Shown here in pieces: positions 235 to 62,006 of a stretch of DNA of 64,000 bases (positions are counted from its first letter, which is position 1; the number at the start of each line of letters is the position of its first letter). The position numbers and the translations under genes are program-made. The stretch lies in sequence record PZ154896.1. One strand, written 5' to 3'. This stretch comes from a phage. Under the pieces are notes generated by a model. It was not told the origin of the DNA, searched no databases, and was given only the letters and a program-made list of their open reading frames with translations.

Positions 235-263
235 ATAATATCATGTTTGAAGCACATGTAAAC
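235..263 (-). promoter_or_regulatory. Early-type promoter (-35 GTTTAC, 17 nt, TGaTATTAT) upstream of motA
   Basis: Read on minus strand; -10 lies in hairpin-forming repeat ggtctat...; followed by conserved aaattggagaa RBS. Confidence 0.5.
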
Positions 264-381
264 TGTTTTGTGAGAAAAAATGCACAAAAAGGAGCCGAAG
301 CTCCCTAATCATGTTTGTCCAACCAGTATAGCCAAATCACTAGTGCAGCTATTGCACCGAGAAATCCTAAGGCTAGGGCAC

Positions 382-1707
382 TCAAAGTGCCTCCAAGTCT
401 TTAGTGTACTCTGTCACAACATCAGTAGACTTCCAATACTCATTTTCTTCTTTCTTAGCTTTAGCTTCTTCTGCCAGTTTACGTGCTTCGTCGGAAGTGA
501 TATGGAAGATGTTAAGGCCTACCAGTTTATCGACATGTTCTTTATACATTTCGATTTGTGCTAGCTCTTCAGTCAAAGCTTTACGAGTCTTGCCCTGAAT
601 CACAATTTCGCCACTGATAACTTTTTTGATGAAGTGTGCCTTAGCAAAAGCAAGTTTAAATGCTTTTTCAGATTCAAGGATTTTGTTGTCAATACGTTTT
701 TGAACGTAAGTCTTACGGACTTCAACAAAATCTTTGATTAAGTCCACTACGTTATCATAGACCGCTAATTTACCCTTTTCATTAATCACTGTGATGTTTT
801 GTGAACGACGTTCGATGAGACTAAAATCTTTCATGATTTTTTCATGACGTAGCTCTTCATCATCAGGCAGCGAATACTCTTTACGGAACTTCACCTTAAA
901 CCCAAAGCCATGTTCACCGCAATCATCTTCCCATGAGATTAGACCTTTGTCTTCCAACGGGTCAAGAACCTTACTCACATACGTTTCACGGTCGAATTTA
1001 TACGGGATTTCAGTTATCTGCATTTGAGTGCGAGATGTGAACTTATATGTTCCGTGAATCTCATAACGCCCATCAACTTCGTGTACTTCACCACGGAATT
1101 CCGGGAATTCAACTTTTGGCTTAGTAACATTTTTACCTTGAAGAGCTTGTAATACAGCCTTTTTGACTGATTTAAAACTATGAGGCAGAATATTTGTTGC
1201 GTAACCAGTTGCAATACCAGAGACACCATTCAAAAGAACTGTCGGAATAATAGGAAGATAGAATTTTGGTGGAATGTGTTCTTTATCTTCATGAGCTGGA
1301 GCATATTCAGTATCTTTATATACGTTATAGAAATTTTTACTTACACGAGCAAAAATATAACGAGATGCTGCAGCTTTTTGGACTGTTCGAGAACCAAAGT
1401 TGCCTTGGCCATCTAACAGTGGATAGTTGTTGTTCCATGTGTTAGCCATCAATGCACCTGCATCTTGTGCAGAAGATTCACCATGGTGATAACCTAAATC
1501 TGCAACACCACCTGCAATTGACGCAAGTTTATGAAATTTTTCTTTATTGCCACGAGCCAAATCTAACGCACGATGAACCACAAAACGTTGAACCGGCTTA
1601 AATCCATCAATCATGTTTGGGATTGCACGGTTTTCAACGGTGTACATCGCGTATGCTAAGGCTTCGTTATCAATAATACTTTTTAGATTACGAGAATTCA
1701 ATTGCAT
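382..1707 (-). CDS. 52: DNA topoisomerase II medium subunit (gp52, GyrA-like)
   Basis: ORF track 441 aa; MQLNSRNLKSIIDNEALAYAMYTVENRAIPNMIDGFKPVQRF... matches T4 gp52. Confidence 0.95.
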   Translation of the reverse strand: MQLNSRNLKSIIDNEALAYAMYTVENRAIPNMIDGFKPVQRFVVHRALDLARGNKEKFHKLASIAGGVADLGYHHGESSAQDAGALMANTWNNNYPLLDGQGNFGSRTVQKAAASRYIFARVSKNFYNVYKDTEYAPAHEDKEHIPPKFYLPIIPTVLLNGVSGIATGYATNILPHSFKSVKKAVLQALQGKNVTKPKVEFPEFRGEVHEVDGRYEIHGTYKFTSRTQMQITEIPYKFDRETYVSKVLDPLEDKGLISWEDDCGEHGFGFKVKFRKEYSLPDDEELRHEKIMKDFSLIERRSQNITVINEKGKLAVYDNVVDLIKDFVEVRKTYVQKRIDNKILESEKAFKLAFAKAHFIKKVISGEIVIQGKTRKALTEELAQIEMYKEHVDKLVGLNIFHITSDEARKLAEEAKAKKEENEYWKSTDVVTEYTKDLEAL

Positions 1708-1711
1708 ATTT

Positions 1712-1852
1712 TCACCATATTAATGAACGAATAGCCATTATAACATCTGAAATGAAAAGCACTACTTGGATTAGCCCAAACATCACACCGTAGTACAGAA
1801 CAGTAAGCAACAACAAGAGCCCGAAGGCTCCTGCTAAGATTTTCTTAATCAT
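1712..1852 (-). CDS. Small hydrophobic membrane peptide (46 aa), ac/stp region
   Basis: Hand-translated MIKKILAGAFGLLLLLTVLYYGVMFGLIQVVLFISDVIMAIRSLIW; start ATG overlaps upstream stop (TAATG); ends just before gene 52 ATG. Confidence 0.4.
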   Translation of the reverse strand: MIKKILAGAFGLLLLLTVLYYGVMFGLIQVVLFISDVIMAIRSLIW

Positions 1853-1998
1853 TACTCGCCTTTTAATACGTTAAAAAGAGCTAAGACCGCTAAGGTACCT
1901 TGTGCCACCGCCTGTTGAAATACTGATGTTTCGCCTGTAACTAAAGTGTTAACGAATAAAAACGACCAACACAACAATGCAATAATCCATGTTACCAT
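1852..1998 (-). CDS. Small membrane protein (48 aa), in the position of T4 ac
   Basis: Hand-translated MVTWIIALLCWSFLFVNTLVTGETSVFQQAVAQGTLAVLALFNVLKGE with GAGGT RBS; identity to ac is positional only. Confidence 0.45.
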   Translation of the reverse strand: MVTWIIALLCWSFLFVNTLVTGETSVFQQAVAQGTLAVLALFNVLKGE

Positions 1999-2010
1999 TT
2001 TAATTACCTC

Positions 2011-2042
2011 AAAAATAAATTAAAGGCCTAACTTAATAGGCC
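2011..2042 (-). terminator. Hairpin plus T-run downstream of ndd
   Basis: ggccta/taggcc stem followed on minus strand by TTTAATTTATTTTT. Confidence 0.4.
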
Positions 2043-2050
2043 CGTATAAA

Positions 2051-2497
2051 TTAGTAACTCTGCAGAATGAATTTGAAATTATCAGCCAGAAGACGGTTCA
2101 TTTCAGTGAGTGTTTGATATTCTGATGTATGGTTGCGAGTGAATGCCAGAGCCAATTGACCTTTACCATAACCAGTGGTCAGTGGTTTCATGTTCTTAGC
2201 TGCAACAAAGATTACATCATATTCAATATTGTTAGTGCCCATAGTACGGGCTAATTGCGAACGGCCTTGACGAATGTGAGAAAGAATTGCATCCAACCCT
2301 TGTTTAGAACGTTGACGTCCTACAAAGAATCGTGCTGCTACTTGACGCCAATCGGATGAACCTTTAACAAAGAAGTAAAAACCTTCACGAGAACGAAACT
2401 CTTTAGAAACTTCAGAACCGTATTCGCCATTACGAACTACTGCAACAACTTCACCGCCAACTGCCAGAAGGTCTTTACGAGTTAAATATTTGGACAT
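2051..2497 (-). CDS. ndd: Nucleoid disruption protein Ndd
   Basis: 148 aa; ...[30 protein letters not shown]...[20 protein letters not shown]...NFKFILQSY resembles T4 Ndd; position rIIB-ndd-52 conserved. Confidence 0.75.
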
Positions 2498-2541
2498 GTT
2501 AATTTCCTCAATTGATTAATGTTTTTGTAATCCATGAGAGC

Positions 2542-3024: not shown

Positions 3025-3288
3025 TCATATCTCAACTTCCGCGAGTTCCATATATCCTTTGTTGATAACCTCTTTAAGGTCTTTAGAAAGAATAACACTA
3101 AAATGGTCGTTCATATGTCCATTAACCAGACGAGTTATTTCGGCTTCAGATGACATATAAGGCACGTCTGAGTCCCAATGAGATAGACCCAAATGGGTAT
3201 AAATCATCCCTTCGTCATCTGCAGTGTTGTACATTGAAACAAATTCGCCTGTTACTTTATGTTTTGCGTAGAAAAATTTAAATTTCAT
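3025..3288 (-). CDS. Hypothetical protein (87 aa)
   Basis: ORF track; promoter cassette at 3315-3344. Confidence 0.55.
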   Translation of the reverse strand: MKFKFFYAKHKVTGEFVSMYNTADDEGMIYTHLGLSHWDSDVPYMSSEAEITRLVNGHMNDHFSVILSKDLKEVINKGYMELAEVEI

Positions 3289-3314
3289 GATGTTATCCTC
3301 TTTTAGATAGGACT

Positions 3315-3344
3315 ACTATATCATAGTCCTACTTAGTTGTAAAC
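3315..3344 (-). promoter_or_regulatory. Early promoter cassette (GTTTAC, 18 nt, TGaTATAGT; hairpin aggact/agtcct)
   Basis: Sequence pattern on minus strand. Confidence 0.5.
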
Positions 3345-11700: not shown

Positions 11701-11927
11701 TAGTAAGTTTCCTTCCAATAAGTTGTACCGTTTTCAGTGATTTCACGGAAGATACCATAGATAGGCATTTCATCGCCTAGTTTTTCGTAAACGTAAACCA
11801 CTTCGGTGTAGCATAAAAATTCGGTCCAGTTTTTCTGTACAACAACTAAATCAGGATTAAACAGAACATCTTCAAACTCATCGATGTTTGAATCAGTAGT
11901 TACGTTTTTAATGATTTGACGTTTCAT
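11700..11927 (-). CDS. Hypothetical protein (~75 aa)
   Basis: ORF track trimmed to MKRQIIKN start with AGGAG RBS. Confidence 0.5.
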
Positions 11928-11955
11928 AATATTCTCCTCTTGTTTTGATAGGTCT

Positions 11956-11985
11956 ATAGTATCATAGACCATAGTTGTTGTACAT
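11956..11985 (-). promoter_or_regulatory. Early promoter cassette (ATGTAC, 18 nt, TGaTACTAT; hairpin ggtctat/atagacc)
   Basis: Sequence pattern; conserved RBS tatcaaaacaagaggagaa follows. Confidence 0.5.
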
Positions 11986-12509
11986 CATTTTAGCAAAATA
12001 AAATCAACTTGTTCTGCCAATGAACGTCTAAACATTAATTGACAACTTCCGAGGATGAAATCAGGTGCTTCATAGACCGCGATGTAGTATCCTTTAGCTT
12101 TCAAGAGTTCAACATCCACCTGGTCGTCAAACCAAGCGTAAACCGCGTCAACACTTTCAAATCCAAAATAGAACCCTTGGGCCCAATCTTCGCTCAATTC
12201 AAATGTGTGATCAATTCTATAGTATCTTAAGATATTTTGTTCAAGGAGTTTATCTTCATTTACTGTAGGACGATTAGGGACATTATAGTTGTCGCCGTGA
12301 TGGTAGAAGTTACCTGAGAGTATTCCATGCTTATCAAGGAACTCCCATGTTTCTTCAGAGTTGTCGGTGCCTGACCAACCGTATGGTGAGCGAGGTTCTT
12401 TATTCCAAGAGGTTTCCCAAATTCTGACGGCTTTACCGTCTTCGATAGCAATTCCTGGTAATGATTCACGTTGAGTACAAAAACTACGTTCTACGCGGTA
12501 AACTAACAT
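11985..12509 (-). CDS. Hypothetical protein (~174 aa)
   Basis: ORF track trimmed to MLVYRVER start with GAGGAG RBS. Confidence 0.55.
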   Translation of the reverse strand: MLVYRVERSFCTQRESLPGIAIEDGKAVRIWETSWNKEPRSPYGWSGTDNSEETWEFLDKHGILSGNFYHHGDNYNVPNRPTVNEDKLLEQNILRYYRIDHTFELSEDWAQGFYFGFESVDAVYAWFDDQVDVELLKAKGYYIAVYEAPDFILGSCQLMFRRSLAEQVDFILLK

Positions 12510-12535
12510 ATTATTCTCCTCTGGTTGGTATGGAT

Positions 12536-12564
12536 ATAATATCAAAACCAGAGGAGAAGTAAAC
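12536..12564 (-). promoter_or_regulatory. Early promoter cassette (GTTTAC, 17 nt, TGaTATTAT) inside 12-bp inverted repeat tctcctctggtt/aaccagaggaga
   Basis: Seen in sequence. Confidence 0.5.
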
Positions 12565-12997: not shown

Positions 12998-13495
12998 TTA
13001 AGCTTTAAGAGGAGACACATAGCGAGTGATTTCAGATTCTTTAACAACTCGGAAGTCACCTAAGAATACGATATTGTATAACTTTTCGCCATCTTCAACC
13101 CATTGGTCACTAATGAAGCCACACATGATATCAGTTTTGCTTGGATAACCGTATTCGTCGATGTAATCAAATTCTTTATCGGTTATAAATTCAACACCTT
13201 TACACAAGGCCCATTTGAACTGTACATTAGGCTCAACGATATCGCTTGAAGCAAAGTGTGCAGGTGCAACTTCTTCGCTTGAAGCAAATTGGACTCGTAT
13301 ATGTTTTTCCAGGAATTTAGGACTTACGTAAGCATACTGGGCATCTTGTCCGCCAAAACTGGGCATGATTCGAACTTTAACTTCTTTAACACGTCCCATG
13401 CCGTTAGTACGAAGCCCTGCTACTTCAACCAGACGACCTGCAGCTTTAGAACGAGAAGCAGGAGATACACGAAGGATTTCACCAATAGTAATCAT
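12998..13495 (-). CDS. Paralog family member B (~165 aa)
   Basis: ORF track trimmed to MITIGEIL start; motifs SRSKAAGRLVEV and FISDQWVEDGEKLYNIVF. Confidence 0.6.
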   Translation of the reverse strand: MITIGEILRVSPASRSKAAGRLVEVAGLRTNGMGRVKEVKVRIMPSFGGQDAQYAYVSPKFLEKHIRVQFASSEEVAPAHFASSDIVEPNVQFKWALCKGVEFITDKEFDYIDEYGYPSKTDIMCGFISDQWVEDGEKLYNIVFLGDFRVVKESEITRYVSPLKA

Positions 13496-13525
13496 ATTTT
13501 TTCTCTCTTTGTTTAAGTTGAATTC

Positions 13526-13555
13526 ATTATACTCCATCCATCCTTGGATGTACAA
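13526..13555 (-). promoter_or_regulatory. Early promoter cassette (TTGTAC, 18 nt, TATAAT; core attatactccatccatccttggatgtaca)
   Basis: Sequence pattern. Confidence 0.5.
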
Positions 13556-14052: not shown

Positions 14053-14083
14053 AATGTTTTTCCTGTTTGGTTAAGATAGAAAG

Positions 14084-14113
14084 ATTATACTCCAACCGTC
14101 CTTGGTTGTAAAC
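14084..14113 (-). promoter_or_regulatory. Early promoter cassette (GTTTAC, 18 nt, TATAAT; core attatactccaaccgtccttggttgtaaac)
   Basis: Sequence pattern. Confidence 0.5.
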
Positions 14114-46399: not shown

Positions 46400-46462
46400 G
46401 ATATTTTCCTCATTTTAAGATGATAGGAAGATAATAACATGTCTTCCTATCGTTGTACATTA

Positions 46463-47530: not shown

Positions 47531-47695
47531 TTTATTTTCCTCTATAGTAGATGGTTTAATCTTAACACATCTATTGAGGATGTAAACTGTTTTATGAAAA
47601 TATTTTCGATTTGAGAGGGGCACAAGGAGATAGTGAAGTGAAGATTCCAATGGATTATATTAGAAATGAGATAAAGAAGACCAGGCGGCACCTGG

Positions 47696-49101: not shown

Positions 49102-50915
49102 TGGTGTTTAACCCTATGCATGATTTCTTTATTTTTACCGAGATTAAATCCGCGTTCGTTCGGATTTCCCAAATAACCGCATGTTCTTCTTATAGTATTC
49201 ATCTTTTTAGGATCAGTTTCTCCACAAACTGAACAAACAAATCCGTTTTCAGTAGGAGTCATTTCATGAGTACTTCCGCATGTAAAACATTTATCTACTG
49301 GCATATTAACACCAAAATAATCTAAATGTTGCGCAGCATAATCCCATACAGCCTCAAGACCTTTTAGGTTATTTTTCATATCAGGAAGTTCAACATAAGA
49401 AATGTGACCGCCTGTTGCAATGAAATGATATGGGGCTTCGCGAGAAATCTTTTCAAATGGAGTAATATTTTCTTCTACTGAAACGTGGAAACTGTTAGTG
49501 TACCAGCCTTTATCGGTGACATCTTTTACACTTCCATATTTTTCTGTATCAAGTTTACAGAAGCGATAACAAAGGTTTTCAGCAGGAGTAGAATATAAAC
49601 TAAAAGCAAATCCAGTTCTTTCAGACCACTGTTTAAGATGAGCATTCATTTTAGTTAAAATTTCTTGTCCAATATCACGACCGACAAGAATATTCAATTC
49701 GTGAATACCAATGTATCCCAAAGACACTGAACTTCTACCATTTTTAAATAACTCAATTATATCGTCATCAGGTTTAAGACGAACCCCGAATGCACCTTCT
49801 TGGTAAAGAATAGGAGCTACAGTTGCTTTAACACCCTTTAAAGAACTAATTCTACACATCAAAGCTTCAAAACACAGATCCATTCGTTCATTAAATAGCT
49901 CAACAAATTTCTGTTCATTGAATTGTGTTCCAATATAAGAATCTAATGCAATACGAGGAAGATTCAGTGTTACAACACCAAGATTATTACGTCCATCAAG
50001 AATTTCATTACCAGTCGAATCTTTCCATACACTCAAGAAACTACGACAACCCATTGGAGAAACAGGAATAGATGAACCGGTGATAGCTTTATTATTCTTA
50101 ACTGAAATAATATCAGGATACATTCTTTTGCTTGCACACTCTAGAGCAAGCTGCTTAATATCATAGTTCGGATCATCTTTATAAAGATTAACACCTTCTT
50201 CAACAAACATAACAAGTTTAGGAAAAATAGGAGTTATCCCATCGCGTCCAAGGCCTTTAATACGATTTTTCAGAATTGCTTTCTGAATCATTCGTTCAGC
50301 CCAGTCAGTTCCCATACCAAACGTAATTGTTACAAAAGGCGTTTGTCCGTTTGAACTAAAGAGAGTATTTACTTCATATTCATAAGCTTGGAATGCATCG
50401 TATACGTCTTTTTCTGTTTTAGATTGGGCATAATTCAACGCATCAGCGATTTGCCATTTTTCTGCATCTTCAACATGTTTAGCGTATGTGCGTTTAACAT
50501 AAGGAGAAAGAACTTTATCGACATTCGCAAATGTAGTTCCGCCGTACTGGTGTGAAGCAACCTGTGCGGTAATTTGTGCCATAATTGCAGTAGCAACGCC
50601 AATAGATTTAGGCGTTTCAATTTGAGCATTACCTAGCTTAAATCCATTCTCAAGCATCCCCTTTAAATCGACTAAACAGCAATTAGTAAATGGAAGAGCA
50701 GGAGAATAATCAATATCATGCATGTGAATGATTCCGCTTTCATGCGCATTCATAATAAAAGACGGGACCATATTTTTGGCAATGTGCTTAGACACAATAC
50801 CAGCCATAAGGTCCCGTTGAGTTGGAAAAACACGAGAATCTTTATTAGCATTCTCGTTCAAAAGATCTTTATTAGTTTTATGAATTAATCCTTCAATTTC
50901 TTTTTCAATTTTCAT
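49098..50915 (-). CDS. nrdD: Anaerobic ribonucleoside-triphosphate reductase NrdD
   Basis: 605 aa; C-terminal zinc/glycyl-radical region ...CFTCGSTHEM...CSVCGE...RTCGYLGNP; uninterrupted. Confidence 0.95.
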   Translation of the reverse strand: MKIEKEIEGLIHKTNKDLLNENANKDSRVFPTQRDLMAGIVSKHIAKNMVPSFIMNAHESGIIHMHDIDYSPALPFTNCCLVDLKGMLENGFKLGNAQIETPKSIGVATAIMAQITAQVASHQYGGTTFANVDKVLSPYVKRTYAKHVEDAEKWQIADALNYAQSKTEKDVYDAFQAYEYEVNTLFSSNGQTPFVTITFGMGTDWAERMIQKAILKNRIKGLGRDGITPIFPKLVMFVEEGVNLYKDDPNYDIKQLALECASKRMYPDIISVKNNKAITGSSIPVSPMGCRSFLSVWKDSTGNEILDGRNNLGVVTLNLPRIALDSYIGTQFNEQKFVELFNERMDLCFEALMCRISSLKGVKATVAPILYQEGAFGVRLKPDDDIIELFKNGRSSVSLGYIGIHELNILVGRDIGQEILTKMNAHLKQWSERTGFAFSLYSTPAENLCYRFCKLDTEKYGSVKDVTDKGWYTNSFHVSVEENITPFEKISREAPYHFIATGGHISYVELPDMKNNLKGLEAVWDYAAQHLDYFGVNMPVDKCFTCGSTHEMTPTENGFVCSVCGETDPKKMNTIRRTCGYLGNPNERGFNLGKNKEIMHRVKHQ

Positions 50916-51390: not shown

Positions 51391-51422
51391 ACCCTTACCT
51401 TAAATAGATAAGGGTATTTATA
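51391..51422 (-). promoter_or_regulatory. Late promoter TATAAATA (51415-51422) abutting hairpin accctta/taagggt that contains the gene 49 SD
   Basis: Matches the architecture known for T4 gene 49 (early transcript masks RBS, late transcript starts inside hairpin). Confidence 0.55.
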
Positions 51423-51423
51423 A

Positions 51424-51603
51424 TTTAGTAAACGTTATAAAAGTCTCGATGAAAACGTTTATATTGTCGAATCATTTTCTTAGTAGGACGTGTTACTGAA
51501 ATAATTGAAGTAGTCATAGTCGGATTGTTTGGAGCACCAGTCATAACAAATTTCCAGGATTTTTGTCCATTTTTTCTTTCACCATAAAATAATTCAGTTT
51601 TCA
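51424..51603 (-). CDS. Small protein (~59 aa)
   Basis: Hand-translated MKTELFYGERKNGQKSWKFVMTGAPNNPTMTTSIISVTRPTKKMIRQYKRFHRDFYNVY. Confidence 0.35.
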
Positions 51604-51613
51604 TAATAAACCT

Positions 51614-52024
51614 TTAACTTAAACGTCTTTCTAAATATTCAATGTATTCCGCTGCTGCTTGCATCAGATTACCTTCATAGCCGTCATTATTTTCTTGTGC
51701 GGCTAATTTAGCTAAAGCATAAGAAATACGTTCCCCTTCGAATTCACCAAGTTCACTGTCACAAACTACTTGGTCAATTTCTTCGAGTTCATCTATTGAA
51801 TTGGATTCCCAGAAACACCAAAAACTGATATCACGGTCGTGGATGCAAAGTTTCTCGCCTGTAGACAACATTACTTCAACGATGCCACCCGACAGGTCAG
51901 CCGTTGTTGAAATACCAATTACCTTGATGATTGTTCCTTTCTTTAATTCAGGAAACTTGACTTGTAGTTCTTCATCTTCTTTAACAATCTTGAACCATTT
52001 ACCGCGAGTTTCAGAAATATTCAT
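51614..52024 (-). CDS. Hypothetical protein (~136 aa; pin region)
   Basis: ORF track trimmed to MNISETRG with GGAG RBS. Confidence 0.5.
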   Translation of the reverse strand: MNISETRGKWFKIVKEDEELQVKFPELKKGTIIKVIGISTTADLSGGIVEVMLSTGEKLCIHDRDISFWCFWESNSIDELEEIDQVVCDSELGEFEGERISYALAKLAAQENNDGYEGNLMQAAAEYIEYLERRLS

Positions 52025-52064
52025 AACCATACTCCATATCAATTAATTCATTTATTGAAGGTTC

Positions 52065-52094
52065 ATCATAACACGTTTCTTCGTCATTGTAAAC
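52065..52094 (-). promoter_or_regulatory. Early promoter (GTTTAC, 18 nt, TGtTATGAT)
   Basis: Sequence pattern. Confidence 0.5.
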
Positions 52095-53145: not shown

Positions 53146-53450
53146 TATAATGTTCTCTCAAATTTGTGGAAGCATTTACGGCATTTCAATTTCAAGTTAT
53201 CAGTGGTCCAGTTAACCAGTTGGACTTGGATAGTTCCACATTCCGGACATGGATGTTTTGCTGCCGATTTGGCAGCATTTTCACGTCGTTCAACCATTTT
53301 CATGATTTCGTTCCATGCCGGAGTAACGAACTCTTCTTCACCGTGGATTTTATCTCGCTGAACAAATTCAATCTTTGAACTATCGTCAATAAACTTAACC
53401 AAGCTGTGATTAGTGCTCATGTCAATATCCTCTAAAAGACGTAGTTTCAT
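53145..53450 (-). CDS. Zinc-ribbon protein (101 aa)
   Basis: C-terminal CPECG...CRKCFHKF. Confidence 0.5.
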   Translation of the reverse strand: MKLRLLEDIDMSTNHSLVKFIDDSSKIEFVQRDKIHGEEEFVTPAWNEIMKMVERRENAAKSAAKHPCPECGTIQVQLVNWTTDNLKLKCRKCFHKFERTL

Positions 53451-54400
53451 TATAAAACCTCAATGGCATTTCGTAAACCATCAGCTTTTGCATTCAGAGC
53501 TTTTAATGATTTAGTTTGTTCTGCAATCTGGACTTCGACTTCTTTCAGACGAGATTTGAGATATTCGCGTTCTTCTCTTAAGTTATCAACTTTTTCTACT
53601 TTAGGTTCTTTAATAGGCTTAGGCTTATACGTATTAGGGTTCTTCAGCTTAATTTGAATACGAGAACTGTATAACATTGAACCGTTATCTTCGGATTCGT
53701 CGAACGTTTCAACAACATCCATAGTCTCTAACAATGTAATAAGTTTATAAGACAACGAACGAACGGTTTTGTTATGCTTATTAATTTCTTCAGCTTTCAT
53801 GGTACCGAGATTACGTGAGTAGTAATAAGGAACCTGGATATCAATTGACAATGATGCGTTACCATTACCAGTTGGTTTGAATACTGCAGTAACCCAATCT
53901 TTAACATGAACTTTATTTGTACGACCATCACCGCCTGTGAATAATTTACGTGAATGTTTAAAAAGCATATTCACTTGATTATTAAATTCACAAGCAAATT
54001 TATCAGCAAATTTAGTTTCAGGAATGGTAGATAACCAATCAGCTAAATGAGTCTTTTTAACATCGTTAATAATAGTAAATTCAACCAAATCAGTTTTAGA
54101 TGTCACAGATTTAATAAAGCTCGGCTTCATAAAGTTTTTAATGTTATCGCGAGCTACAGTAGAAGATAATAAACGAGAACGTTTGAACCATTGAAGCAGT
54201 GTCCCTAATGAATGAGAATACGCATTCTGAGTATCTTTACAGATATGATTTTCTTGACCTGTGTATGTACCAAAATCTCGAAGAATACCACTTACTACAA
54301 CTCGGTGTGGAACATCAAATCCTAATGAACCAGAAGCACGTTGGGCATGAACGTTAGCGATAAGACCTGCAAAATAATCAATGTAATGTGAACGTGTCAT
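53450..54400 (-). CDS. Hypothetical protein (316 aa) with C-terminal coiled coil
   Basis: ORF track; heptad-like C-terminus; cassette promoter upstream. Confidence 0.55.
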   Translation of the reverse strand: MTRSHYIDYFAGLIANVHAQRASGSLGFDVPHRVVVSGILRDFGTYTGQENHICKDTQNAYSHSLGTLLQWFKRSRLLSSTVARDNIKNFMKPSFIKSVTSKTDLVEFTIINDVKKTHLADWLSTIPETKFADKFACEFNNQVNMLFKHSRKLFTGGDGRTNKVHVKDWVTAVFKPTGNGNASLSIDIQVPYYYSRNLGTMKAEEINKHNKTVRSLSYKLITLLETMDVVETFDESEDNGSMLYSSRIQIKLKNPNTYKPKPIKEPKVEKVDNLREEREYLKSRLKEVEVQIAEQTKSLKALNAKADGLRNAIEVL

Positions 54401-54428
54401 AATATTTTCCTCTCGTTAAGATAAAAAG

Positions 54429-54458
54429 ATTATACTCCAACCATCCTTGGTTGTAAAC
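54429..54458 (-). promoter_or_regulatory. Early promoter cassette (GTTTAC, 18 nt, TATAAT; core attatactccaaccatccttggttgtaaac)
   Basis: Same cassette as at ~14084 and ~55422. Confidence 0.5.
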
Positions 54459-54462: not shown

Positions 54463-55395
54463 TTATGATTTTAATGCATTCATTGCGTTAAAAAGTTTAG
54501 AGTACTGCAACTGGAGCTTAGTAACTACTTGTTGAGCATCACGAAGCTTAGCTTGTGCTTTGTCAAGTTCAACAGACAGTTGGTCCACAGTGGCTTTGAT
54601 TTGATTATAATAGTAATCTTCGGCAGGAAGAAGTCCGTTAGAGATTTCCAGTTTAGTCGACGGTGTGCCGTTAAACATAACAGGTTGTGCTGAAGCTGAA
54701 TTAATCTTACCGATAGTCGGGGCGACAATAATTGACGCTTCGAACGTTGCATTTTCCTTTTTAAGATTTTTATAATATTCAGAGTCTTTGTGCCACCATG
54801 GCGCAGGAACCTTTTTACCAATAGATACACGAGCCTGGATAGCGATATGGCCCTTATTCTTGATAATGTCTATAATATTAAGCTCACGAGAATAAATTGC
54901 TTTAATCTGGTGAATATTATCACCTAACACTTCCAACGCTTGGTGGAATACACGAGCAACGTTATCATTCTTAGGTTTATACGTAAGAGTGAACTCGTTC
55001 TCACTGATAACCATGATTTCTAACTTATCGTAAGTATATTTCAAATGTTTCATGTTAATTGCTTGAGGACGAATACGAGAAGCAATGGCCATCAGATTGT
55101 TAAGGTTATTTCTGAACTGTTTAGCAAAATATTGTCCATAACCGCCGATACAAAAATTACGAAGTTTCTGTTTGGCTAATAAACGGCTGAACTCACCATT
55201 TTTAATGAACTCTTTAACGGGTGTGTTAGTAACGCATTCAAATTGAGTAAACTTACGAGAATTAATCCCATAATATGAACAGATTTCCTCAATCTCTTCA
55301 GGAGTCTTTACAGGCATACGGATAGGATTAGGACCTGGGGTATATGCGTTCGAGGTAAATTCTTTGATAAGTTCTCTACGTGTAATAGAAGCCAT
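54463..55395 (-). CDS. Hypothetical protein (310 aa) with C-terminal coiled coil
   Basis: ORF track. Confidence 0.55.
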   Translation of the reverse strand: MASITRRELIKEFTSNAYTPGPNPIRMPVKTPEEIEEICSYYGINSRKFTQFECVTNTPVKEFIKNGEFSRLLAKQKLRNFCIGGYGQYFAKQFRNNLNNLMAIASRIRPQAINMKHLKYTYDKLEIMVISENEFTLTYKPKNDNVARVFHQALEVLGDNIHQIKAIYSRELNIIDIIKNKGHIAIQARVSIGKKVPAPWWHKDSEYYKNLKKENATFEASIIVAPTIGKINSASAQPVMFNGTPSTKLEISNGLLPAEDYYYNQIKATVDQLSVELDKAQAKLRDAQQVVTKLQLQYSKLFNAMNALKS

Positions 55396-55421
55396 TTTAT
55401 ATTCCTCATGTTGAAAAATTT

Positions 55422-55451
55422 ATTATACTCCAACCATCCTTGGTTGTACAT
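55422..55451 (-). promoter_or_regulatory. Early promoter cassette (ATGTAC, 18 nt, TATAAT)
   Basis: Sequence pattern. Confidence 0.5.
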
Positions 55452-56508: not shown

Positions 56509-57036
56509 TTATGCGTGAACCGTCTTTAAACGTTCTTCAAATTTACGAAGAGTACTAATACGTTCTGATTTCTGTTTTGTATAGTTTGCAATACGTTCTG
56601 AAGTGAGAGCGTATCGTTCGTTTACTGTTTCTTTCATGAAGTCAGGGATTTCACGAGAAGCTTTAATTTCATCAAACTTATCGAGTACTGCCTGGTCTTC
56701 AGCGATTAAATTTTCGTACATCTCGATATCTTTCTTGATAAACTCGATATCTTCCTGGGTTACTTTGGATAAACGAGATGCTTTATCCTTTTTGTACTGC
56801 TCGTTAGTTTCACGAGACCAGAATAATGTACGTTTTTTGTTAGTGTTTTTGTAGACTTCCACAATTCCAACTGAATCGATGATAGCAATCCAATTCCAGC
56901 GAGATTTGAAAATCTGACCTCCGTCCACGGTAATCTCGTTACCATAAGCAACGTCATTAAAGAACTTGCTTTGTGCTTCAGATTTAAATTTACCGTCGTT
57001 ATAATTTACCAGGTTGAAAATATCTTTAGCGTTCAT
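56509..57036 (-). CDS. Hypothetical protein (175 aa)
   Basis: ORF track. Confidence 0.5.
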   Translation of the reverse strand: MNAKDIFNLVNYNDGKFKSEAQSKFFNDVAYGNEITVDGGQIFKSRWNWIAIIDSVGIVEVYKNTNKKRTLFWSRETNEQYKKDKASRLSKVTQEDIEFIKKDIEMYENLIAEDQAVLDKFDEIKASREIPDFMKETVNERYALTSERIANYTKQKSERISTLRKFEERLKTVHA

Positions 57037-57063
57037 GTTTTACCTCCAGTAGTTGATAGGTCT

Positions 57064-57092
57064 ATAATAACACAACCATAGACCTTGTAAAC
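57064..57092 (-). promoter_or_regulatory. Early promoter cassette (GTTTAC, 17 nt, TATTAT; hairpin ggtctat/atagacc)
   Basis: Sequence pattern. Confidence 0.5.
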
Positions 57093-57520: not shown

Positions 57521-58501
57521 TTATTTCAGTAAAGTTACTTCAGAGATTTCCTCCCAACCATCTTTATCAGTTGAAATAAAATCTGCTACATAAAGAGCCG
57601 TACGTAATGATACATTGCGAAGACGAGATACGTTAGCCTTCATCCAGGACAATGCTTTATACGTTTCTGCATCTGTCAGACCACGTTTCTGCATCATGTC
57701 AGTAGATAATATTACGTCTTCAACTCGAACCATAATCTCTTCATTAGAGTGTACTCCAAGGTCGAGATACACTGAACGAGATACTAAAGCTTGAAGGTGT
57801 GGGGCAAGTTTCGAACCGCGTTCTAACTCTTTATCGATATCAACGTTTGTAATGAAAACGATAGTACCTTCAAACTCAAATTCTTTATCAATACCCTTAT
57901 CATCGAGATAAGATGACGCAGTGCTCCAGCAAACTTTGCGTTTATCTCCAGTATCTAATGCTGCTTTAAGAAGGTTCAAGATGTCCATATCTGAGAATAC
58001 GTCAACGTCGTCGATTAAGAGAACGCTGTCTGCATCACGGTTGAGCCAAAGTTGTTCGTAAAGGCCGATACCAGAGATTTTACCATTAATGCTTTTATAT
58101 TTGATGAAACCGTTATCATTAGCATTATTAAGTGCTTTATCCAGAGAATACGTCTTACCAATACCAGCTGCACCTGAAATAATGAGTGAACGAATTTTAC
58201 CATCGATAATGCCATTCGTCATCATGTTCATTACTTTAAAGCGTTTGTTGATACGAGTTTTCATATCTTCAGTGCTTTCAACGACTGCAACCGGTGACGT
58301 CTCAACTCCTTCCATTACGATGTCTGATTTGAAGACCCATACTCCACGTTCAGAACCATCAATCATAACGAAAATTTTACCATCACCTAAGTGGGAACAT
58401 TCAGGATTAAGCTTTGCTGGGAACCATGTCTTTGTGGCAACATAAGAACCAGAGATTTCGTTATTACGATAGATACCTTTTTTGATTTGAACGTTGAACA
58501 T
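57521..58501 (-). CDS. P-loop NTPase (AAA-like), function unknown
   Basis: Walker A ISGAAGIGKT, Walker B VLLIDDVD; start moved to MFNVQIK where a GGAG RBS exists. Confidence 0.55.
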   Translation of the reverse strand: MFNVQIKKGIYRNNEISGSYVATKTWFPAKLNPECSHLGDGKIFVMIDGSERGVWVFKSDIVMEGVETSPVAVVESTEDMKTRINKRFKVMNMMTNGIIDGKIRSLIISGAAGIGKTYSLDKALNNANDNGFIKYKSINGKISGIGLYEQLWLNRDADSVLLIDDVDVFSDMDILNLLKAALDTGDKRKVCWSTASSYLDDKGIDKEFEFEGTIVFITNVDIDKELERGSKLAPHLQALVSRSVYLDLGVHSNEEIMVRVEDVILSTDMMQKRGLTDAETYKALSWMKANVSRLRNVSLRTALYVADFISTDKDGWEEISEVTLLK

Positions 58502-58539
58502 TTTATTCTCCAATTTACTCATTTCGTTTCGATAGGTCT

Positions 58540-58568
58540 ATAATAACATGTTTAAAGCAAAAGTAAAC
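58540..58568 (-). promoter_or_regulatory. Early promoter cassette (GTTTAC, 17 nt, TATTAT; gataggtctataataacatg core; RBS aaattggagaa as at motA)
   Basis: Sequence pattern. Confidence 0.5.
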
Positions 58569-58570
58569 AA

Positions 58571-58789
58571 TTATTTGAGACGAGATTTTTTGGTAAGAGG
58601 TTGAAAGAACACTGCTTTACCGGCTGGGGTTAAGGTGACTCGTAATGCATTACCGATTCCTAAGGATGCTTTAACTAAACCTTTAGCTTTCAGTTCACCG
58701 AATGCTTGACGTTGGTCTGCATCACGAGTGTTAACCATAAGACCTTTATCACCTGCTTCACGAATCATTTCTAACATTTTGGTTTTCAT
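58571..58789 (-). CDS. Hypothetical protein (~72 aa)
   Basis: ORF track trimmed to MKTKMLEM with GAGGAGAA RBS. Confidence 0.45.
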   Translation of the reverse strand: MKTKMLEMIREAGDKGLMVNTRDADQRQAFGELKAKGLVKASLGIGNALRVTLTPAGKAVFFQPLTKKSRLK

Positions 58790-58817
58790 TTTGTTCTCCT
58801 CTTGTTTTGATAGGTCT

Positions 58818-58846
58818 ATAATAACATATCCTAAAAGCATGTACAC
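58818..58846 (-). promoter_or_regulatory. Early promoter cassette (GTGTAC, 17 nt, TATTAT)
   Basis: Sequence pattern. Confidence 0.5.
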
Positions 58847-58876
58847 TACTTTTTAAAAATATTTTAACCCCCTAAA

Positions 58877-58892
58877 GGGACCCGAAGGTCCC
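58877..58892 (-). terminator. Hairpin gggacc-cgaa-ggtccc after the secreted-protein gene (weak T-run)
   Basis: Seen in sequence. Confidence 0.35.
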
Positions 58893-58897
58893 CACAT

Positions 58898-59179
58898 TTA
58901 CTTATCGCACTTAGCAACATAATTAGGCATATCACAGAATACGGAGCGAGTAACTACTCGGCCCTTTGACCATGCTTCAGTTGCTTGTCCGGCTGTGCTA
59001 TTAATATAGCTTGATCTAATGTTCTCAATACCCTGAGAATGTGATGCGTTTACCGAACCATTAGAAGACCCAGAAGTCTGGTTACCACCAGCTCCTGTAC
59101 TACCGCTGGCTGCACCCGTGGTAGCACCAACAGAGAATGCCATCATTACTGCGAATAAACCAATTACTAATTTTTTCAT
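58898..59179 (-). CDS. Secreted Gly/Ser-rich protein (93 aa) with signal peptide
   Basis: MKKLVIGLFAVMMAFSVGATTGAASG...; late promoter immediately upstream. Confidence 0.55.
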   Translation of the reverse strand: MKKLVIGLFAVMMAFSVGATTGAASGSTGAGGNQTSGSSNGSVNASHSQGIENIRSSYINSTAGQATEAWSKGRVVTRSVFCDMPNYVAKCDK

Positions 59180-59210
59180 ATTTACCTCAAGTTAATGGTT
59201 ATTTATCTAC

Positions 59211-60200
59211 TTATTTATAGTAAGAATTATGATTTTCGAGATAGACTTGTTCAAGGAAGTCATCCCAGAAACTCATATCTACTTTTTGTTGCATACCGTT
59301 CTTGGCAGCTTGTTCTGACGCATGTTCAACTTGGTCAACGATATCTTCTAGGAATTCTTGTACAGTTTTAAACGTATGTTTACCAAGCTTAACATCGAGA
59401 ATAAATGGAGCATCCTGAAGTGGGTAAACCAGGTCGCCTGTTTTGTAAATTTCCAATAATTGAAGTCCACCACGACATGCATGACTCAATGCTTTCCAGT
59501 CAATACCTTCGTTAGCTTCTGCCTTACGAGCACGTTCACCATAGTTCTCTTCTAGTTTAACCAGGATGGCATTGAACTCTTTATTGGTTAATGTGTCTTG
59601 GAATTTACGGTCCAACAGATTATAGAATGTTTGCTTACCTGTTTTCTCGTTTTCGGTTTCAACCCATGAAGCAAATTCACCTACAGGCAGAACATTCTTC
59701 ATATGGGATAAACGAATTACTGCACCATTATCAAAGTATTGTCCCCATTCATTAGAACGTTTAAGGGCTTGACGAAGAACAGCCAGTCGAGAACCCTTGA
59801 CACCGTATTTAGAAGCTTGCTTACGGACATACCCTAAATAAGATTTCATGTTAGTGGTATAGAAACGAGACCTGTTATCTTGAATATACTTCCATACATC
59901 AGGCAAATCAGATTTAACTACTAAACTTGGTGGAGTGTGAAGCATATCTAATGCGACGGTTTCACCATCCGCAGCTAGTTTAAAGAAATATTTGAGACTA
60001 TACAACTCATGGTCCACGTCGTCTTTTGTGTTCTTAGAAGATGTGTTATTCGTGTTTTTGCTCATATGTTCTTTAACGTTACCGGTCAAAATATCACGAG
60101 CATGAGGGACATAAATTTCTTTAAAATCAACGTCAGATTCAGGAGTAGACGTTCCATAAAGGTGGCTACCAAAGTAAGCCTTAACAATCGTTTTCATCAT
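59211..60200 (-). CDS. Polymerase-beta-superfamily nucleotidyltransferase (329 aa), function unknown
   Basis: N-terminal AYFGSHLYGTSTPESDVDF (GS...DxD nucleotidyltransferase motif). Confidence 0.55.
   Translation of the reverse strand: MMKTIVKAYFGSHLYGTSTPESDVDFKEIYVPHARDILTGNVKEHMSKNTNNTSSKNTKDDVDHELYSLKYFFKLAADGETVALDMLHTPPSLVVKSDLPDVWKYIQDNRSRFYTTNMKSYLGYVRKQASKYGVKGSRLAVLRQALKRSNEWGQYFDNGAVIRLSHMKNVLPVGEFASWVETENEKTGKQTFYNLLDRKFQDTLTNKEFNAILVKLEENYGERARKAEANEGIDWKALSHACRGGLQLLEIYKTGDLVYPLQDAPFILDVKLGKHTFKTVQEFLEDIVDQVEHASEQAAKNGMQQKVDMSFWDDFLEQVYLENHNSYYK
59212..59219 (-). promoter_or_regulatory. Late promoter TATAAATA
   Basis: Exact consensus ~33 nt upstream of the secreted-protein ATG. 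Confidence 0.5.
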
Positions 60201-60212
60201 TTAGCCTTATAT

Positions 60213-60671
60213 TCAAGAGTAGGACAGATTTTTTTCTTTACGAGCTTTAAGGTATTCACCTATTAATGATTTCTTACGTTCAATAGGCTCAAGTCCATTT
60301 TTAATTCGTTCTTGGTTTTGCGCAATGAGCTCAATTTCTTTATAATATTTTCTGTCGTTATATTTGTCTAACAACCAAGACGGACCAATTACCAACCCGG
60401 TAGCAATAAAAGCCATGACTGCTACCATTAAAATGCCTACACCAATTGAGGCCGGAACTAATGTCCATAGACTGCTAAAAACAAAGAATCTAGTTAAAAT
60501 TTCCTGGCCAATGATTACGACTGCTGCTAAAATCGCAAATCCAATAATTGAAACAGACAATACTGGGATTAACGTTTTCCAAAAATAAGCACACAACGTT
60601 TTCGGGCGATTCCATGTACTATTGAACGCGGCATAAATTTTAAAGTGCCAAGAGTTTTCATTGATAATCAT
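60213..60671 (-). CDS. Multi-pass membrane protein (152 aa)
   Basis: ORF track; several hydrophobic segments. Confidence 0.5.
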   Translation of the reverse strand: MIINENSWHFKIYAAFNSTWNRPKTLCAYFWKTLIPVLSVSIIGFAILAAVVIIGQEILTRFFVFSSLWTLVPASIGVGILMVAVMAFIATGLVIGPSWLLDKYNDRKYYKEIELIAQNQERIKNGLEPIERKKSLIGEYLKARKEKNLSYS

Positions 60672-60680
60672 AATAATTCC

Positions 60681-61211
60681 TTATTTCAAAGTCGGGATAA
60701 TAGAATCAAGATAAGCTTTAAGAGCAACTGCTTCATCTTTGTCTAATGTAACGATATGTTGACGAAGGTCATCAATTTGACGAATAACTACGACATCACC
60801 ATCTTCATAAGAAGGATTAACGCCTAGGACTGTTGTATAGTCAGGGCGGTCCTGACTTGTAATAAAAGCATTACGGCATTTAGCCCATTGAAGTTTGGCC
60901 TTTTTGGCTGTTTCAGATTCCATGAATTCTTTCACTTTAGCGACGAATGTTTTCCAATTATTAATAGAAAAACATTCGTCTTCAGTTTCGATATTAACCC
61001 CACTATAAAGTCCATGATAAAAACGAACTTGAAGGTCTTCACCAATGTTAATTACAGATGCATGTCCTGGTGGATTGAGTTTCAAAATCTTGTCCAGTTC
61101 CATAGGAAGAATAGTAGCAGCATCATCTTCTTGTGTCAGAACATACACATAACCACGTTTTTCGATACATAAATCACCAAACAACTCGGTTGTTTCAATT
61201 ACAGTTTTCAT
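60681..61211 (-). CDS. Hypothetical protein (~176 aa)
   Basis: ORF track trimmed to ATG MKTVIET. Confidence 0.5.
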   Translation of the reverse strand: MKTVIETTELFGDLCIEKRGYVYVLTQEDDAATILPMELDKILKLNPPGHASVINIGEDLQVRFYHGLYSGVNIETEDECFSINNWKTFVAKVKEFMESETAKKAKLQWAKCRNAFITSQDRPDYTTVLGVNPSYEDGDVVVIRQIDDLRQHIVTLDKDEAVALKAYLDSIIPTLK

Positions 61212-61212
61212 A

Positions 61213-61392
61213 TTATTCACCAATTAAAGTTTCAACAAAATTCACCAAAGCATTCTGGCAAGCATCAACCTGATTTTCATAAAAGTCTTCGTTATCATTT
61301 ACCGCATGATAAGCTACATCATTCAAATCTGAATCGGCTTCACGTAAGTCACGGATAAGGTCCATCAATTTATTAGCTTGTTCACGGGTCAT
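61213..61392 (-). CDS. Small acidic protein (~59 aa)
   Basis: Hand-translated MTREQANKLMDLIRDLREADSDLNDVAYHAVNDNEDFYENQVDACQNALVNFVETLIGE; coupled to neighbours. Confidence 0.35.
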   Translation of the reverse strand: MTREQANKLMDLIRDLREADSDLNDVAYHAVNDNEDFYENQVDACQNALVNFVETLIGE

Positions 61393-61499
61393 TTTACCAT
61401 ACTCGTTTCAATAAGATTCACTATGCCGTTTACCATGTTATAAGTAAACATCGGATAATTGTATTGTACTACAACATAAGCGATAAGCAAAAGTTTCAT
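61389..61499 (-). CDS. Mini-ORF (36 aa, hydrophobic)
   Basis: Hand-translated MKLLLIAYVVVQYNYPMFTYNMVNGIVNLIETSMVK; GGAG RBS; ATGA overlap with next ORF. Confidence 0.25.
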   Translation of the reverse strand: MKLLLIAYVVVQYNYPMFTYNMVNGIVNLIETSMVK

Positions 61500-61527
61500 T
61501 TTGTTCTCCATTTGTTTTGGTAGGATT

Positions 61528-61557
61528 ACTATATCATAGTCCTACCAAGACGTAAAC
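61528..61557 (-). promoter_or_regulatory. Early promoter cassette (GTTTAC, 18 nt, TGaTATAGT; hairpin ggtagga/tcctacc)
   Basis: Sequence pattern. Confidence 0.5.
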
Positions 61558-61763
61558 TACCGATTGTGTTTTAAATGTTGATAAAGTTCTTCAACTTGTT
61601 TAGGGTCCAAAACAATTAAGTCATTTTCTTGGCGAAGATAAATCAATCCCTTATCCCCAGGGCCATTTTTACAAAACATCGCCACCATATCATCGTCTTC
61701 AGCGCTTTCAGGTAAAAGTTCAAGTACACCGTCTTCAGATTTTCCAGTATAATCGTAAAGCAT
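61557..61763 (-). CDS. Hypothetical protein (~68 aa)
   Basis: ORF track trimmed to MLYDYTGK with GAGGAC RBS. Confidence 0.45.
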   Translation of the reverse strand: MLYDYTGKSEDGVLELLPESAEDDDMVAMFCKNGPGDKGLIYLRQENDLIVLDPKQVEELYQHLKHNR

Positions 61764-61770
61764 AATGTCC

Positions 61771-61950
61771 TCACATAATCTCGTTAACATACATTTGCAA
61801 TTCGGTGTGGGCGTCGGCCATCTTTTTCATAGCTCTGTTAATGTCGATGTCTCCATCTTCGCAACCATGAGCATTTTCCCAATCAGATACCGCATTAGCG
61901 TACTCTTCAATCAAAAACATCAACTTAGAAATCTTTTCTTTACGTGTCAT
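61771..61950 (-). CDS. Hypothetical protein (~59 aa)
   Basis: ORF track trimmed to MTRKEKISK with GAGGAGAA RBS. Confidence 0.45.
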   Translation of the reverse strand: MTRKEKISKLMFLIEEYANAVSDWENAHGCEDGDIDINRAMKKMADAHTELQMYVNEIM

Positions 61951-61977
61951 AACGTTCTCCTCTAGTAAGTAAGGACT

Positions 61978-62006
61978 ACTATAACACAACCTGAGGAGAA
62001 GTAAAC
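61978..62006 (-). promoter_or_regulatory. Early promoter (GTTTAC, 17 nt, TATAGT) inside inverted repeat ttctcctc/gaggagaa
   Basis: Sequence pattern. Confidence 0.5.

Follow-up and report, generated by a model that had tools for sequence, protein, structure and literature searches.

The question raised by the 64,000-nucleotide (nt) stretch of phage DNA analyzed here (sequence record PZ154896.1; its full length is called the window) is why the same short element recurs in front of so many of its genes. The element consists of a promoter, often a hairpin, and a ribosome-binding site (RBS). An earlier note on this DNA had described such cassettes in front of at least 19 genes, and had proposed that they resemble the promoter-early stem-loop (PeSL) cassettes of T4-type phages, that they mediate gene shuffling, and that read-through transcripts could have their RBS masked by the hairpin. 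Our answer, to which we assign a probability of about 80%, is that the repeats are early-gene expression modules of an RB69-like T4-type phage, which combine a promoter, an RBS, and patches of homology, with a hairpin in about half of them.

The setting of the window is in line with a T4-type phage. Megablast searches with the thirds of the window revealed more than 100 genomes of Mosigvirus (RB69-like) coliphages that match it at 95-98% identity, and the top matches were ST0, 308Ecol101PP, and phi25-307. According to the RB69 annotation the window is the classical T4 early region, and the gene order with ascending coordinates is gp52, ndd, denB, rIIB, rIIA, gp39, motB, dexA, dda, modA, soc, 56, 61, imm, 41, uvsX, 43, 45/44/62, 46/47, 55, nrdG/D, 49, pin, the nrdC series, and tk. 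Essentially all genes of the window are on the minus strand. A scan of both strands of the whole window with Rfam at the gathering threshold revealed no known RNA family.

The promoters were searched with a two-block weight matrix, which covered the -35 region with its flanks and the extended -10 region, allowed a spacer of 16-19 nt, and was used with a cut-off of at least 14 bits. This matrix, GTTTAC-N17/18-(TG)nTATAAT, yielded 30 sites on the minus strand and a single site on the plus strand, compared with a mean of 0.59 sites and a maximum of two in 100 dinucleotide shuffles, so that the described architecture of a -35 element, a spacer of 17-18 nt, and an extended -10 element was confirmed. 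An independent pattern search gave 11 matches versus 2.6 expected, ten of them on the minus strand. A loose regular expression matched 32 times on the minus strand and 13 times on the plus strand, and the minus-strand matches precede genes. In contrast, a scan with the generic sigma-70 consensus was not informative (58 sites versus 68 expected), and thus only the T4-type matrix discriminates. On 57 kilobases (kb) of T4 the same matrix detected 18 sites on the minus strand and none on the plus strand.

Twenty-eight of the 30 sites precede a gene start (ATG) with a Shine-Dalgarno (SD) sequence, and the number of 19 genes given before was thus an undercount. A cassette is defined here as the span from the -35 element to the ATG and is named by its upper coordinate (e.g. 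12564); all 28 are on the minus strand, and the range of 235-62006 reported before is indeed that from the first to the last cassette. The distance between the end of the -10 element and the ATG is 26-31 nt in 20 cassettes. The 24 nt upstream of the -35 element have an A+T content of 72%, versus 63% for the whole window, and in 18 of the 28 cassettes the stop codon of the upstream gene is at most 15 nt away from the -35 element. The downstream genes are orthologues of T4 early genes, e.g. ndd, motB, modA, imm, sp, and nrdC.x. The cassettes are unevenly distributed, i.e., successive 8 kb of the window contain 4, 4, 6, 2, 0, 3, 4, and 5 of them, and none is present within 24.8-46.1 kb, the region of the genes 41, uvsX, 43, 45, 44, 62, 46, and 47.

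A comparison with RB69 was possible because Nolan et al. (2006) predicted 58 early promoters for this phage and gave their coordinates in Additional file 3 (PMC1524935). The 30 published sites within or next to the syntenic range were mapped onto the window, and 27 of the 28 cassettes correspond one-to-one to a published RB69 early promoter; the exception is 53478. The cassettes and their listed RB69 counterparts have the same -35 element, the same -10 element, and C residues at -3 to -1. The attributes of T4-type early promoters were all found, namely GTTTAC at -36 to -31, an extended -10 element with T at -7 and A at -11, an A-rich region upstream, and a position 5' of early genes. By sequence consensus, the cassettes thus carry T4-type early promoters fused to an RBS.

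Strong matches to the early promoter were also present within coding sequences, with no gene start nearby, at 49025 (nrdG), 46885, and 45000 (gene 55). Site 46885 is contained in the published RB69 list, and the nrdG site 49025 has a counterpart in T4. A further element upstream of gene 55, at 45403-45447, has an inverted repeat ATAGGTCT...AGACCTAT around TATAAT and the same discriminator block as the early cassettes, lacks the GTTTAC of the -35 region, and is adjoined by the MotA-box-like sequence TGCTTTA. It is possibly a middle promoter that is built on the -10 module of the early cassettes.

The second part of the cassettes is the RBS. Conserved RBS blocks had been noticed before, and indeed the block TATCAAAACAAGAGGAGAA is present twice, at 11932-11950 and 58794-58812, with 0.07 occurrences expected by chance. 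The first of these belongs to the cassette of cef (11925-11985). Cassette 263 (193-263), which precedes the gene upstream of gp52 and corresponds to RB69 Pe:162713, has the RBS AAATTGGAGAA in common with cassette 58568, and the RBS of cassette 19605 (19545-19605, mrh.2) is GGAGAACAATA. For the strong sites at which RegB/S1 cleaves T4 early mRNAs, a review gives the consensus GG*AGRAYARAA (PMC3014915). Exact matches to GGAGRAYARAA were found four times, versus 0.17 expected from shuffles, and all four are on the minus strand and end at the ATG of a cassette gene (24745, 58501, 58789, and 61499). Four to five additional SD sequences or cassette leaders match with one mismatch (12509, 19547, 40595, 47530, and probably 46111). 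As in the T4 sites, the blocks GGAGAACAAAA (cassettes 58846 and 61557) and GGAGAATAAAA (cassette 58568) fit the consensus exactly; in contrast to it, half of the cassette SD sequences are of the GAGGAA type and lack GGAG. In RB69, regB is encoded just beyond the range of the window. The conserved RBS block is best read as a predicted RegB recognition site, and the early mRNAs with the best-conserved copies, in which the SD sequence equals the consensus, would probably be translated immediately, before RegB inactivates them.

Taken together, a module is about 60 nt long and fills the gap between the stop codon of one gene and the ATG of the next. It contains an A/T-rich stretch, a T4-type early promoter for the host sigma-70 RNA polymerase (GTTTAC, 17-18 nt, TGnTATAAT), and a discriminator that contains C (AGNCCTA), followed by about 20 nt of leader and by the SD sequence. 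Blocks of 13-27 nt (-10/discriminator, RBS) are shared between modules, which therefore also act as short patches of homology, and recombination between neighboring modules deletes or exchanges the small genes between them.

Such recombination was seen in three cases. The window was aligned in full length with RB69, 308Ecol101PP, and ST0, and the part from 44.7 to 64 kb was also aligned with PNJ-6, Mizar, and SQ17. Three independent deletions turned out to be cassette-by-cassette recombinations with hybrid cassettes at the junctions. The first example is the cassette 24804 (24743-24804) of the window itself, in which the promoter half of RB69 Pe:20971 is joined to the RBS and ATG of Pe:20537. 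The crossover is within a GGAGAACAAAATG block, and one open reading frame (ORF) of about 415-430 base pairs (bp) was lost. The other two examples concern the ORF 58571-58789 of the window, which is located between the cassettes 58846 (58787-58846, in front of the RB69 ORF102c homologue) as the upstream partner and 58568 (58499-58568, in front of nrdC.10) as the downstream partner. The ORF is absent from ST0, 308Ecol101PP, and PNJ-6, with the junction in the TATTATAGACCTATC block common to both cassettes, and it is also absent from Mizar, with the junction in the GGAGAA block. The crossover point thus differs, and the Mizar deletion was therefore an independent event, i.e., the same small ORF was deleted twice via different crossover points in the same cassette pair. 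None of the recombined cassettes 24804, 58568, and 58846 has a significant embedded hairpin, and thus the hairpin is not needed for the exchange; it is the shared sequence blocks, rather than the hairpins, that recombine here.

Cassette-mediated shuffling is not the general rule in this region. About 20 distinct insertions or deletions (indels) of at least 25 bp distinguish the window from its relatives, and most of them are not bounded by cassettes. The comparison of the cassette flanks with relatives that the earlier note had suggested thus gave a divided result, i.e., three hybrid-cassette deletion junctions and a majority of indels elsewhere. Two boundaries are one-sided: SQ17 lacks 47348-47526, with one boundary at the ATG of cassette 47587 (47528-47587, gp55.6, weak hairpin), and a recurrent indel boundary at 52026-52032 is at the ATG of cassette 52094 (52022-52094), which precedes pin and is located within the 3' end of the upstream gene. 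In the case of cassette 24229 (24169-24229, imm.1) the boundary of a 206-bp indel is about 13-25 nt upstream of the -35 element. The deletions at 18025 (modB), 24242, 45459, 19927, 51421-51613, and 58880-59210 were rejected as cassette events, as they have a microhomology of 0-5 bp or are located at gene ends, outside cassettes. A replacement of 3.1 kb at 58559-61671 was also ruled out, because realignment resolved it into a 278-bp cassette-to-cassette deletion and a separate insertion of about 270 bp. The other indels are insertions of introns or homing endonucleases (40599, 50378, 50856) and losses of whole genes without cassettes.

Two of these differences are described here as additional observations. 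Insertions of 0.7-1.0 kb are present in relatives at 40599-40661, 50378, and 50856-50909, and the window lacks all three; ST0 has insertions between 46 and 45.2 and between nrdD and 49, and in PNJ-6 and SQ17 an insertion with an annotated homing endonuclease is located inside nrdD. In addition, modB is deleted in the window (18012-18068, junction 18025), where 508 bp of RB69, ST0, and 308Ecol101PP are missing and a 5-bp microhomology ACAAA is found. The RB69 counterpart of cassette 18124 (18066-18124) drives modB, and in the window this cassette precedes an 18-codon remnant left by the deletion.

A second aspect of shuffling is the presence of near-identical cassettes in front of unrelated genes. 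The near-identity of 2531-2570 with 46121-46160 and of 14084-14113 with 54429-54458 and 55422-55451 was verified, and the coordinates given before were exact. The cores of the cassette pairs 54458/14113, 2571/46160, and 263/58568 are 85-96% identical, although they are located tens of kb apart in front of non-homologous genes; the highest value of 96% was obtained for 14113 and 54458, the downstream genes of which are unrelated. The similarity ends abruptly at the cassette edges. Cassettes 58846 and 11985 share only the half from the -10 element to the RBS, and cassettes are thus mosaics themselves. Gene conversion or cassette transfer may keep these sub-families near-identical. Also in T4, near-identical cassettes of the form TACTATacaactatcaactactgatacgga-ttggagaat were observed in front of three different genes, with the -35 elements at about 27080, 167086, and 163673.

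The third part of the cassettes is the hairpin. The earlier note had placed the -10 element in or beside an inverted repeat throughout, and this turned out to be true for about half of the cassettes (13-15 of 28), with hairpins of 6-12 bp, whereas the remainder have no significant stem. Three types can be distinguished. In type (a) the 5' arm is in the spacer, the 3' arm begins with the final one or two bases of the -10 element and reaches about +1, and most of the extended -10 element is in the loop; the folding free energy (dG) is between -9.5 and -14.5 kcal/mol. One example is cassette 3344 (3286-3344, RB69 ORF270c homologue) with the arms TAGGACTA (3324-3331) and TAGTCCTA (3308-3315) and a dG of -13.2 kcal/mol. 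Variants of it are found in 2832 (2772-2832, ndd.1; 11 bp including G-U pairs, over the -10 element, dG -13.6), 23488 (23427-23488, sp; GGACTA/TAGTCC over the -10 element, dG -11.1), and 61557 (61497-61557, in front of a 36-codon ORF; 9-12 bp, TTGGTAGGA/TCCTACCAA, dG -14.5). Further examples are GGTCTAT/ATAGACC in 11985 and 57092 (57034-57092, nrdC.8; arms AGGTCTAT at 57078-57085 and ATAGACCT at 57058-57065, dG -13.4), TGAGAGCA/TGCTCTCA with the -10 element in the loop in 2571 (2495-2571, ndd; arms at 2551-2558 and 2535-2542, dG -13.9), the same hairpin in 46160 (46091-46160, gp55.2; weak -35 element ATGCAC), and the 10-bp hairpin GATAGGAAGA/TCTTCCTATC, again with the -10 element in the loop, in 46460 (46397-46460, RB69 ORF075c homologue; dG -13.4).

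Type (b) is a short stem entirely in the spacer. It has the form AACCA-agga-TGGTT in 14113 (14050-14113, motB-family gene), 54458 (54398-54458, nrdC.3), and 55451 (55393-55451, nrdC.5; -35 element ATGTAC), and cassette 13555 (13493-13555, motB-family gene) has the compensatory variant ATCCA-agga-TGGAT. In type (c) the spacer pairs with the SD region. This type was found twice, in 12564 (12507-12564, motB.2), where the spacer sequence TTCTCCTCTGGTT (12546-12558) is complementary over 13 bp to the SD region AACCAGAGGAGAA (12514-12526), and in 62006 (61948-62006, mobD.2a), where TTCTCCTC (61993-62000) is complementary over 8 bp to the SD sequence GAGGAGAA (61955-61962).

Several lines of evidence revealed that the pairing is kept. 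Stems of at least 6 bp are present in 13 of the 30 native sites versus 5.6 expected when the halves are swapped between partners (P=0.0003), and for stems of at least 7 bp the numbers are 8 and 2.5 (P=0.001). A fold z-score below -2 was obtained for 10 of the 28 cassettes, versus 8% of random control 44-mers (Mann-Whitney P=0.0002), and in nine of these ten the dG is between -9.5 and -14.5 kcal/mol. The hairpin frequency was similar in the RB69 promoters beyond the window (10 of 23) and lower in T4 (3 of 17). For a set of 11 sequences that share the register and stem from the window, RB69, ST0, and T4, pairing was found in 87.6% of the cells, compared with 35-54% after a shift of the 3' partner by 1-3 columns, and 7 of the 11 pair positions vary on both sides. 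RB69 Pe:42515 differs from its window counterpart 46160 by two compensatory double changes, and ST0 has the U-G intermediate. The T4 motB promoter retains the frame AAACTCTTG-stem-AGAGTATAAT-stem, with GGGACC/GGTCCC in place of GAGAGC/GCTCTC. Hairpin pairing is thus maintained by compensatory change. Distant ndd loci were also sought in viral contigs, and only three near-identical loci were returned.

These results bear on the view that the repeats are functionless by-products of duplication, template switching, or gene conversion among strong promoters, with selection acting only on the strength of promoter and RBS. The lack of any hairpin in half of the cassettes and the sub-families that have clearly spread or been homogenized are in accordance with it, as is the spacer of 12564, which is an inverted copy of the RBS block and resembles a rearrangement product. 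However, the register is preserved by compensatory changes across different families as well as in counterparts that belong to two genera, the hairpin frequency was replicated in an independent part of RB69, and the native arm combinations outdo swapped ones. Therefore, we regard this view as improbable.

With the -10 element numbered -12 to -7 (PMC1524935), hairpins of type (a) have a 3' arm that reaches about the predicted +1, and +4 at most. The transcript had been proposed to start inside the hairpin; instead, the predicted +1 is at or just past its 3' end, so that the cassette's own RNA should lack the hairpin, which by this prediction can form only in read-through RNA or in single-stranded DNA.

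One possibility is a switch in which the 5' arm, upstream of +1, pairs with the RBS, so that read-through RNA would be untranslatable and only the cassette's own early transcript would be translated. The principle of masking is established in T4 (PMC3014915), and it fits a minority of the cassettes, i.e., 12564 with its 13-bp duplex, which lowers the predicted SD accessibility from 0.59 to 0.03 and is the only strongly masked case, and 62006 with its 8-bp duplex. The same spacer-SD design, made up of different sequences, was found in RB69 Pe:20537 (TTCTCCAGTAG / CTACTGGAGAA) and in the T4 motB.2 promoter (TCCTCGGT / ACTGAGGA), and the spacer of RB69 Pe:61376 has the matching arm TTCTCCTCTAG. 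Across the 28 cassettes the picture is different. In partition-function calculations the SD sequence has a mean unpaired probability of 0.65 in the cassette's own transcript, and in read-through RNA the accessibility is 0.44 for the native cassettes versus 0.45 with swapped upstream halves (P=0.30). A purine-rich SD becomes less accessible with any pyrimidine-rich sequence upstream of it. No excess of masked SD sequences over the number expected from permutations was obtained for the 28 cassettes, the common hairpins, with their end at about +1, leave a gap of roughly 10 nt to the SD, and in several cassettes (11985, 23799, and 23488) the SD is even more accessible than in swapped controls. 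General RBS masking was therefore rejected as a property of the cassette set, and the switch is an unlikely explanation of the hairpins, whereas the spacer-SD pairing of type (c) is probably a real but rare device. On the plus strand, the spacer of 12564 (12540-12558) is an inverted copy of the leader/RBS block TATCAAAACAAGAGGAGAA with 1 mismatch in 19, which points to an inverted duplication as the origin of the spacer-SD repeat.

Another role is indicated by the location of the hairpins. An embedded hairpin is present in 12 of the 18 cassettes with an abutting stop codon, but in only one of the ten with a longer gap (P=0.006), and upstream of at least five of the latter there is a distinct hairpin that is rich in G+C and resembles a terminator. 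Such hairpins were found just upstream of cassettes without an embedded hairpin at 291-305 (cassette 263), 19622-19639 (19605), 24812-24827 (24804), 58877-58893 (58846), and 62023-62044 (62006), and the first four have a C(UUCG)G tetraloop. This complementary distribution suggests that, where the upstream stop codon is so close to the -35 element that there is no room for a terminator, the embedded hairpin may take its place and serve, between the genes, as the 3'-end or attenuator structure of the upstream transcripts. This is the function that we prefer, but only tentatively, as the odds are about two to one against it. A stricter version is somewhat more doubtful, namely that the 44-nt core is dual-coded, i.e., a promoter on the DNA and, on read-through RNA, a hairpin that replaces a terminator or stabilizes the 3' end where the stop codon abuts the -35 element. 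If it were true, promoter and RNA structure would co-evolve in one element, and small early genes would be self-insulated, portable units.

It has also to be considered that the inverted repeats act as DNA, either as a cruciform or hairpin or as the target of a structure-specific protein (endonuclease VII, a recombinase), and in this way modulate the opening of the promoter or stimulate the exchange of cassettes; a similar speculation was put forward by the PeSL authors. The arm sequences vary while the pairing is kept, which suits recognition of a structure rather than of a sequence, neither fold energy nor G-U content has a preference for the sense strand, and the hairpin is centered on the -10 element, the region that melts. 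However, the stems consist of short, A/T-rich arms, the observed hybrid junctions are in cassettes without a significant embedded hairpin, at plain homology blocks, and the U-G intermediate between the compensatory states would be tolerated in RNA and a mismatch in DNA, although this is a single case. In view of this evidence an action of the repeats as DNA does not seem likely.

Returning to the view that the repeats are early-gene expression modules with a hairpin in about half of them, several results weigh against it, in addition to the lack of hairpins in the recombined cassettes. Promoter activity and +1 were deduced from the T4/RB69 consensus, and a hairpin is missing from about half of the cassettes. 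The 11 sequences of the covariation set were picked for their hairpins and represent only two or three related families, and thus they illustrate, but do not prove, the covariation; moreover, a few single substitutions within the genus break pairs. The association of hairpin and stop codon is post hoc, with thresholds set after the data had been seen, and in other RB69 regions together with T4 it had the same direction, but was not significant (11 of 21 versus 5 of 19, P=0.12). The embedded hairpins are A/T-rich and not followed by a U-tract, and thus they are not canonical intrinsic terminators. Lastly, the sense and the antisense strand do not differ in the stability of their folds (P=0.30), so that roles at the RNA level and at the DNA level are inseparable.

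The remaining cassettes are 17254 (17174-17254, srd), which has a long leader, 17995 (17935-17995, modA), and 23799 (23739-23799, imm), all three without a hairpin, and the uncertain, promoter-like 53478 (53418-53478), which is located in the end of nrdC.3 in front of nrdC.2 and overlaps the TAATG stop/start junction of the two genes. If it were active, its RNA would bypass the annotated coupled start in favor of the internal ATG 53420, which would result in a protein shorter by 10 residues.

These findings add the RB69 group to the phages with PeSL-type cassettes and provide direct evidence from junctions. They support the view that T4-type phages exchange genes as modules, with regulatory cassettes as the linkers; T4 biology as generally understood is unchanged. 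In addition, three look-alikes could be separated, i.e., the maintained hairpin over the -10 element, the rare masking of the SD by the spacer, and the RBS block as a predicted RegB recognition site. For the annotation and engineering of therapeutic Mosigvirus phages, the cassettes mark natural, self-contained points of insertion and deletion.

Three known systems can be compared with the cassettes. The T4 genes e, soc, 49, and I-TevI have RBS-sequestering hairpins with an internal promoter (PMC3014915). Similarly, in cassettes 12564 and 62006 the SD is paired with an arm that is located upstream of +1; in contrast to the late or middle internal promoters of the T4 genes, the promoter is an early one here, and the design is limited to these two of the 28 cassettes. 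The RB69 study of Nolan et al. (PMC1524935) mentions neither stem-loops, hairpins, or inverted repeats nor recombination, whereas both structure and recombination are described here.

The closest relatives are the PeSL cassettes, which have been described for RB49/phi1 (Arbiol et al. 2010, PMC2839356) and for T4/PST and KVP40/nt-1 (Comeau et al. 2014, PMC4122927). RB69 is not mentioned in these two papers, and no link between PeSL and RB69 was found in the literature that was searched. The window resembles PeSL in six of the eight defining features, in one of them only in part; the other two are a terminator or attenuator activity of the stem-loop and the formation of excised mini-circles. As in PeSL, an A/T-rich stretch with the upstream stop codon is followed by a strong sigma-70-like early promoter, which was assigned by consensus, and the element ends with the SD and the start codon in all 28 cassettes. 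The concentration in variable, hyperplastic regions is reflected by the distribution of the cassettes, and indels bounded by cassettes with an internal crossover are represented by the three hybrid junctions, in which neighboring cassettes crossed over between the -10 element and the ATG and small ORFs were deleted. The stem-loop is the partial match, because, unlike in PeSL, a stem is present in no more than about half of the cassettes. Where it is present, its position is as in RB49/phi1, where the stem-loop is mostly between -35 and -10 or overlaps -10, and where crossovers are also located between the -10 element and the ATG (PMC2839356). In contrast to the G/C-rich RB49 stems (GGGG..CCCC), one of which is a proven terminator, the stems of the window are A/T-rich, have no U-tract, and are known from sequence alone. 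They fit the T4/PST elements with the consensus TTTACW..TAYWAT and AGNA-loop-TCNT stems, as exemplified by AGGA..TCCT. Taken together, the resemblance proposed by the earlier note was verified at the level of sequence, i.e., the architecture of the cassettes matches that of the published PeSL cassettes, and elements of this kind have already been described.

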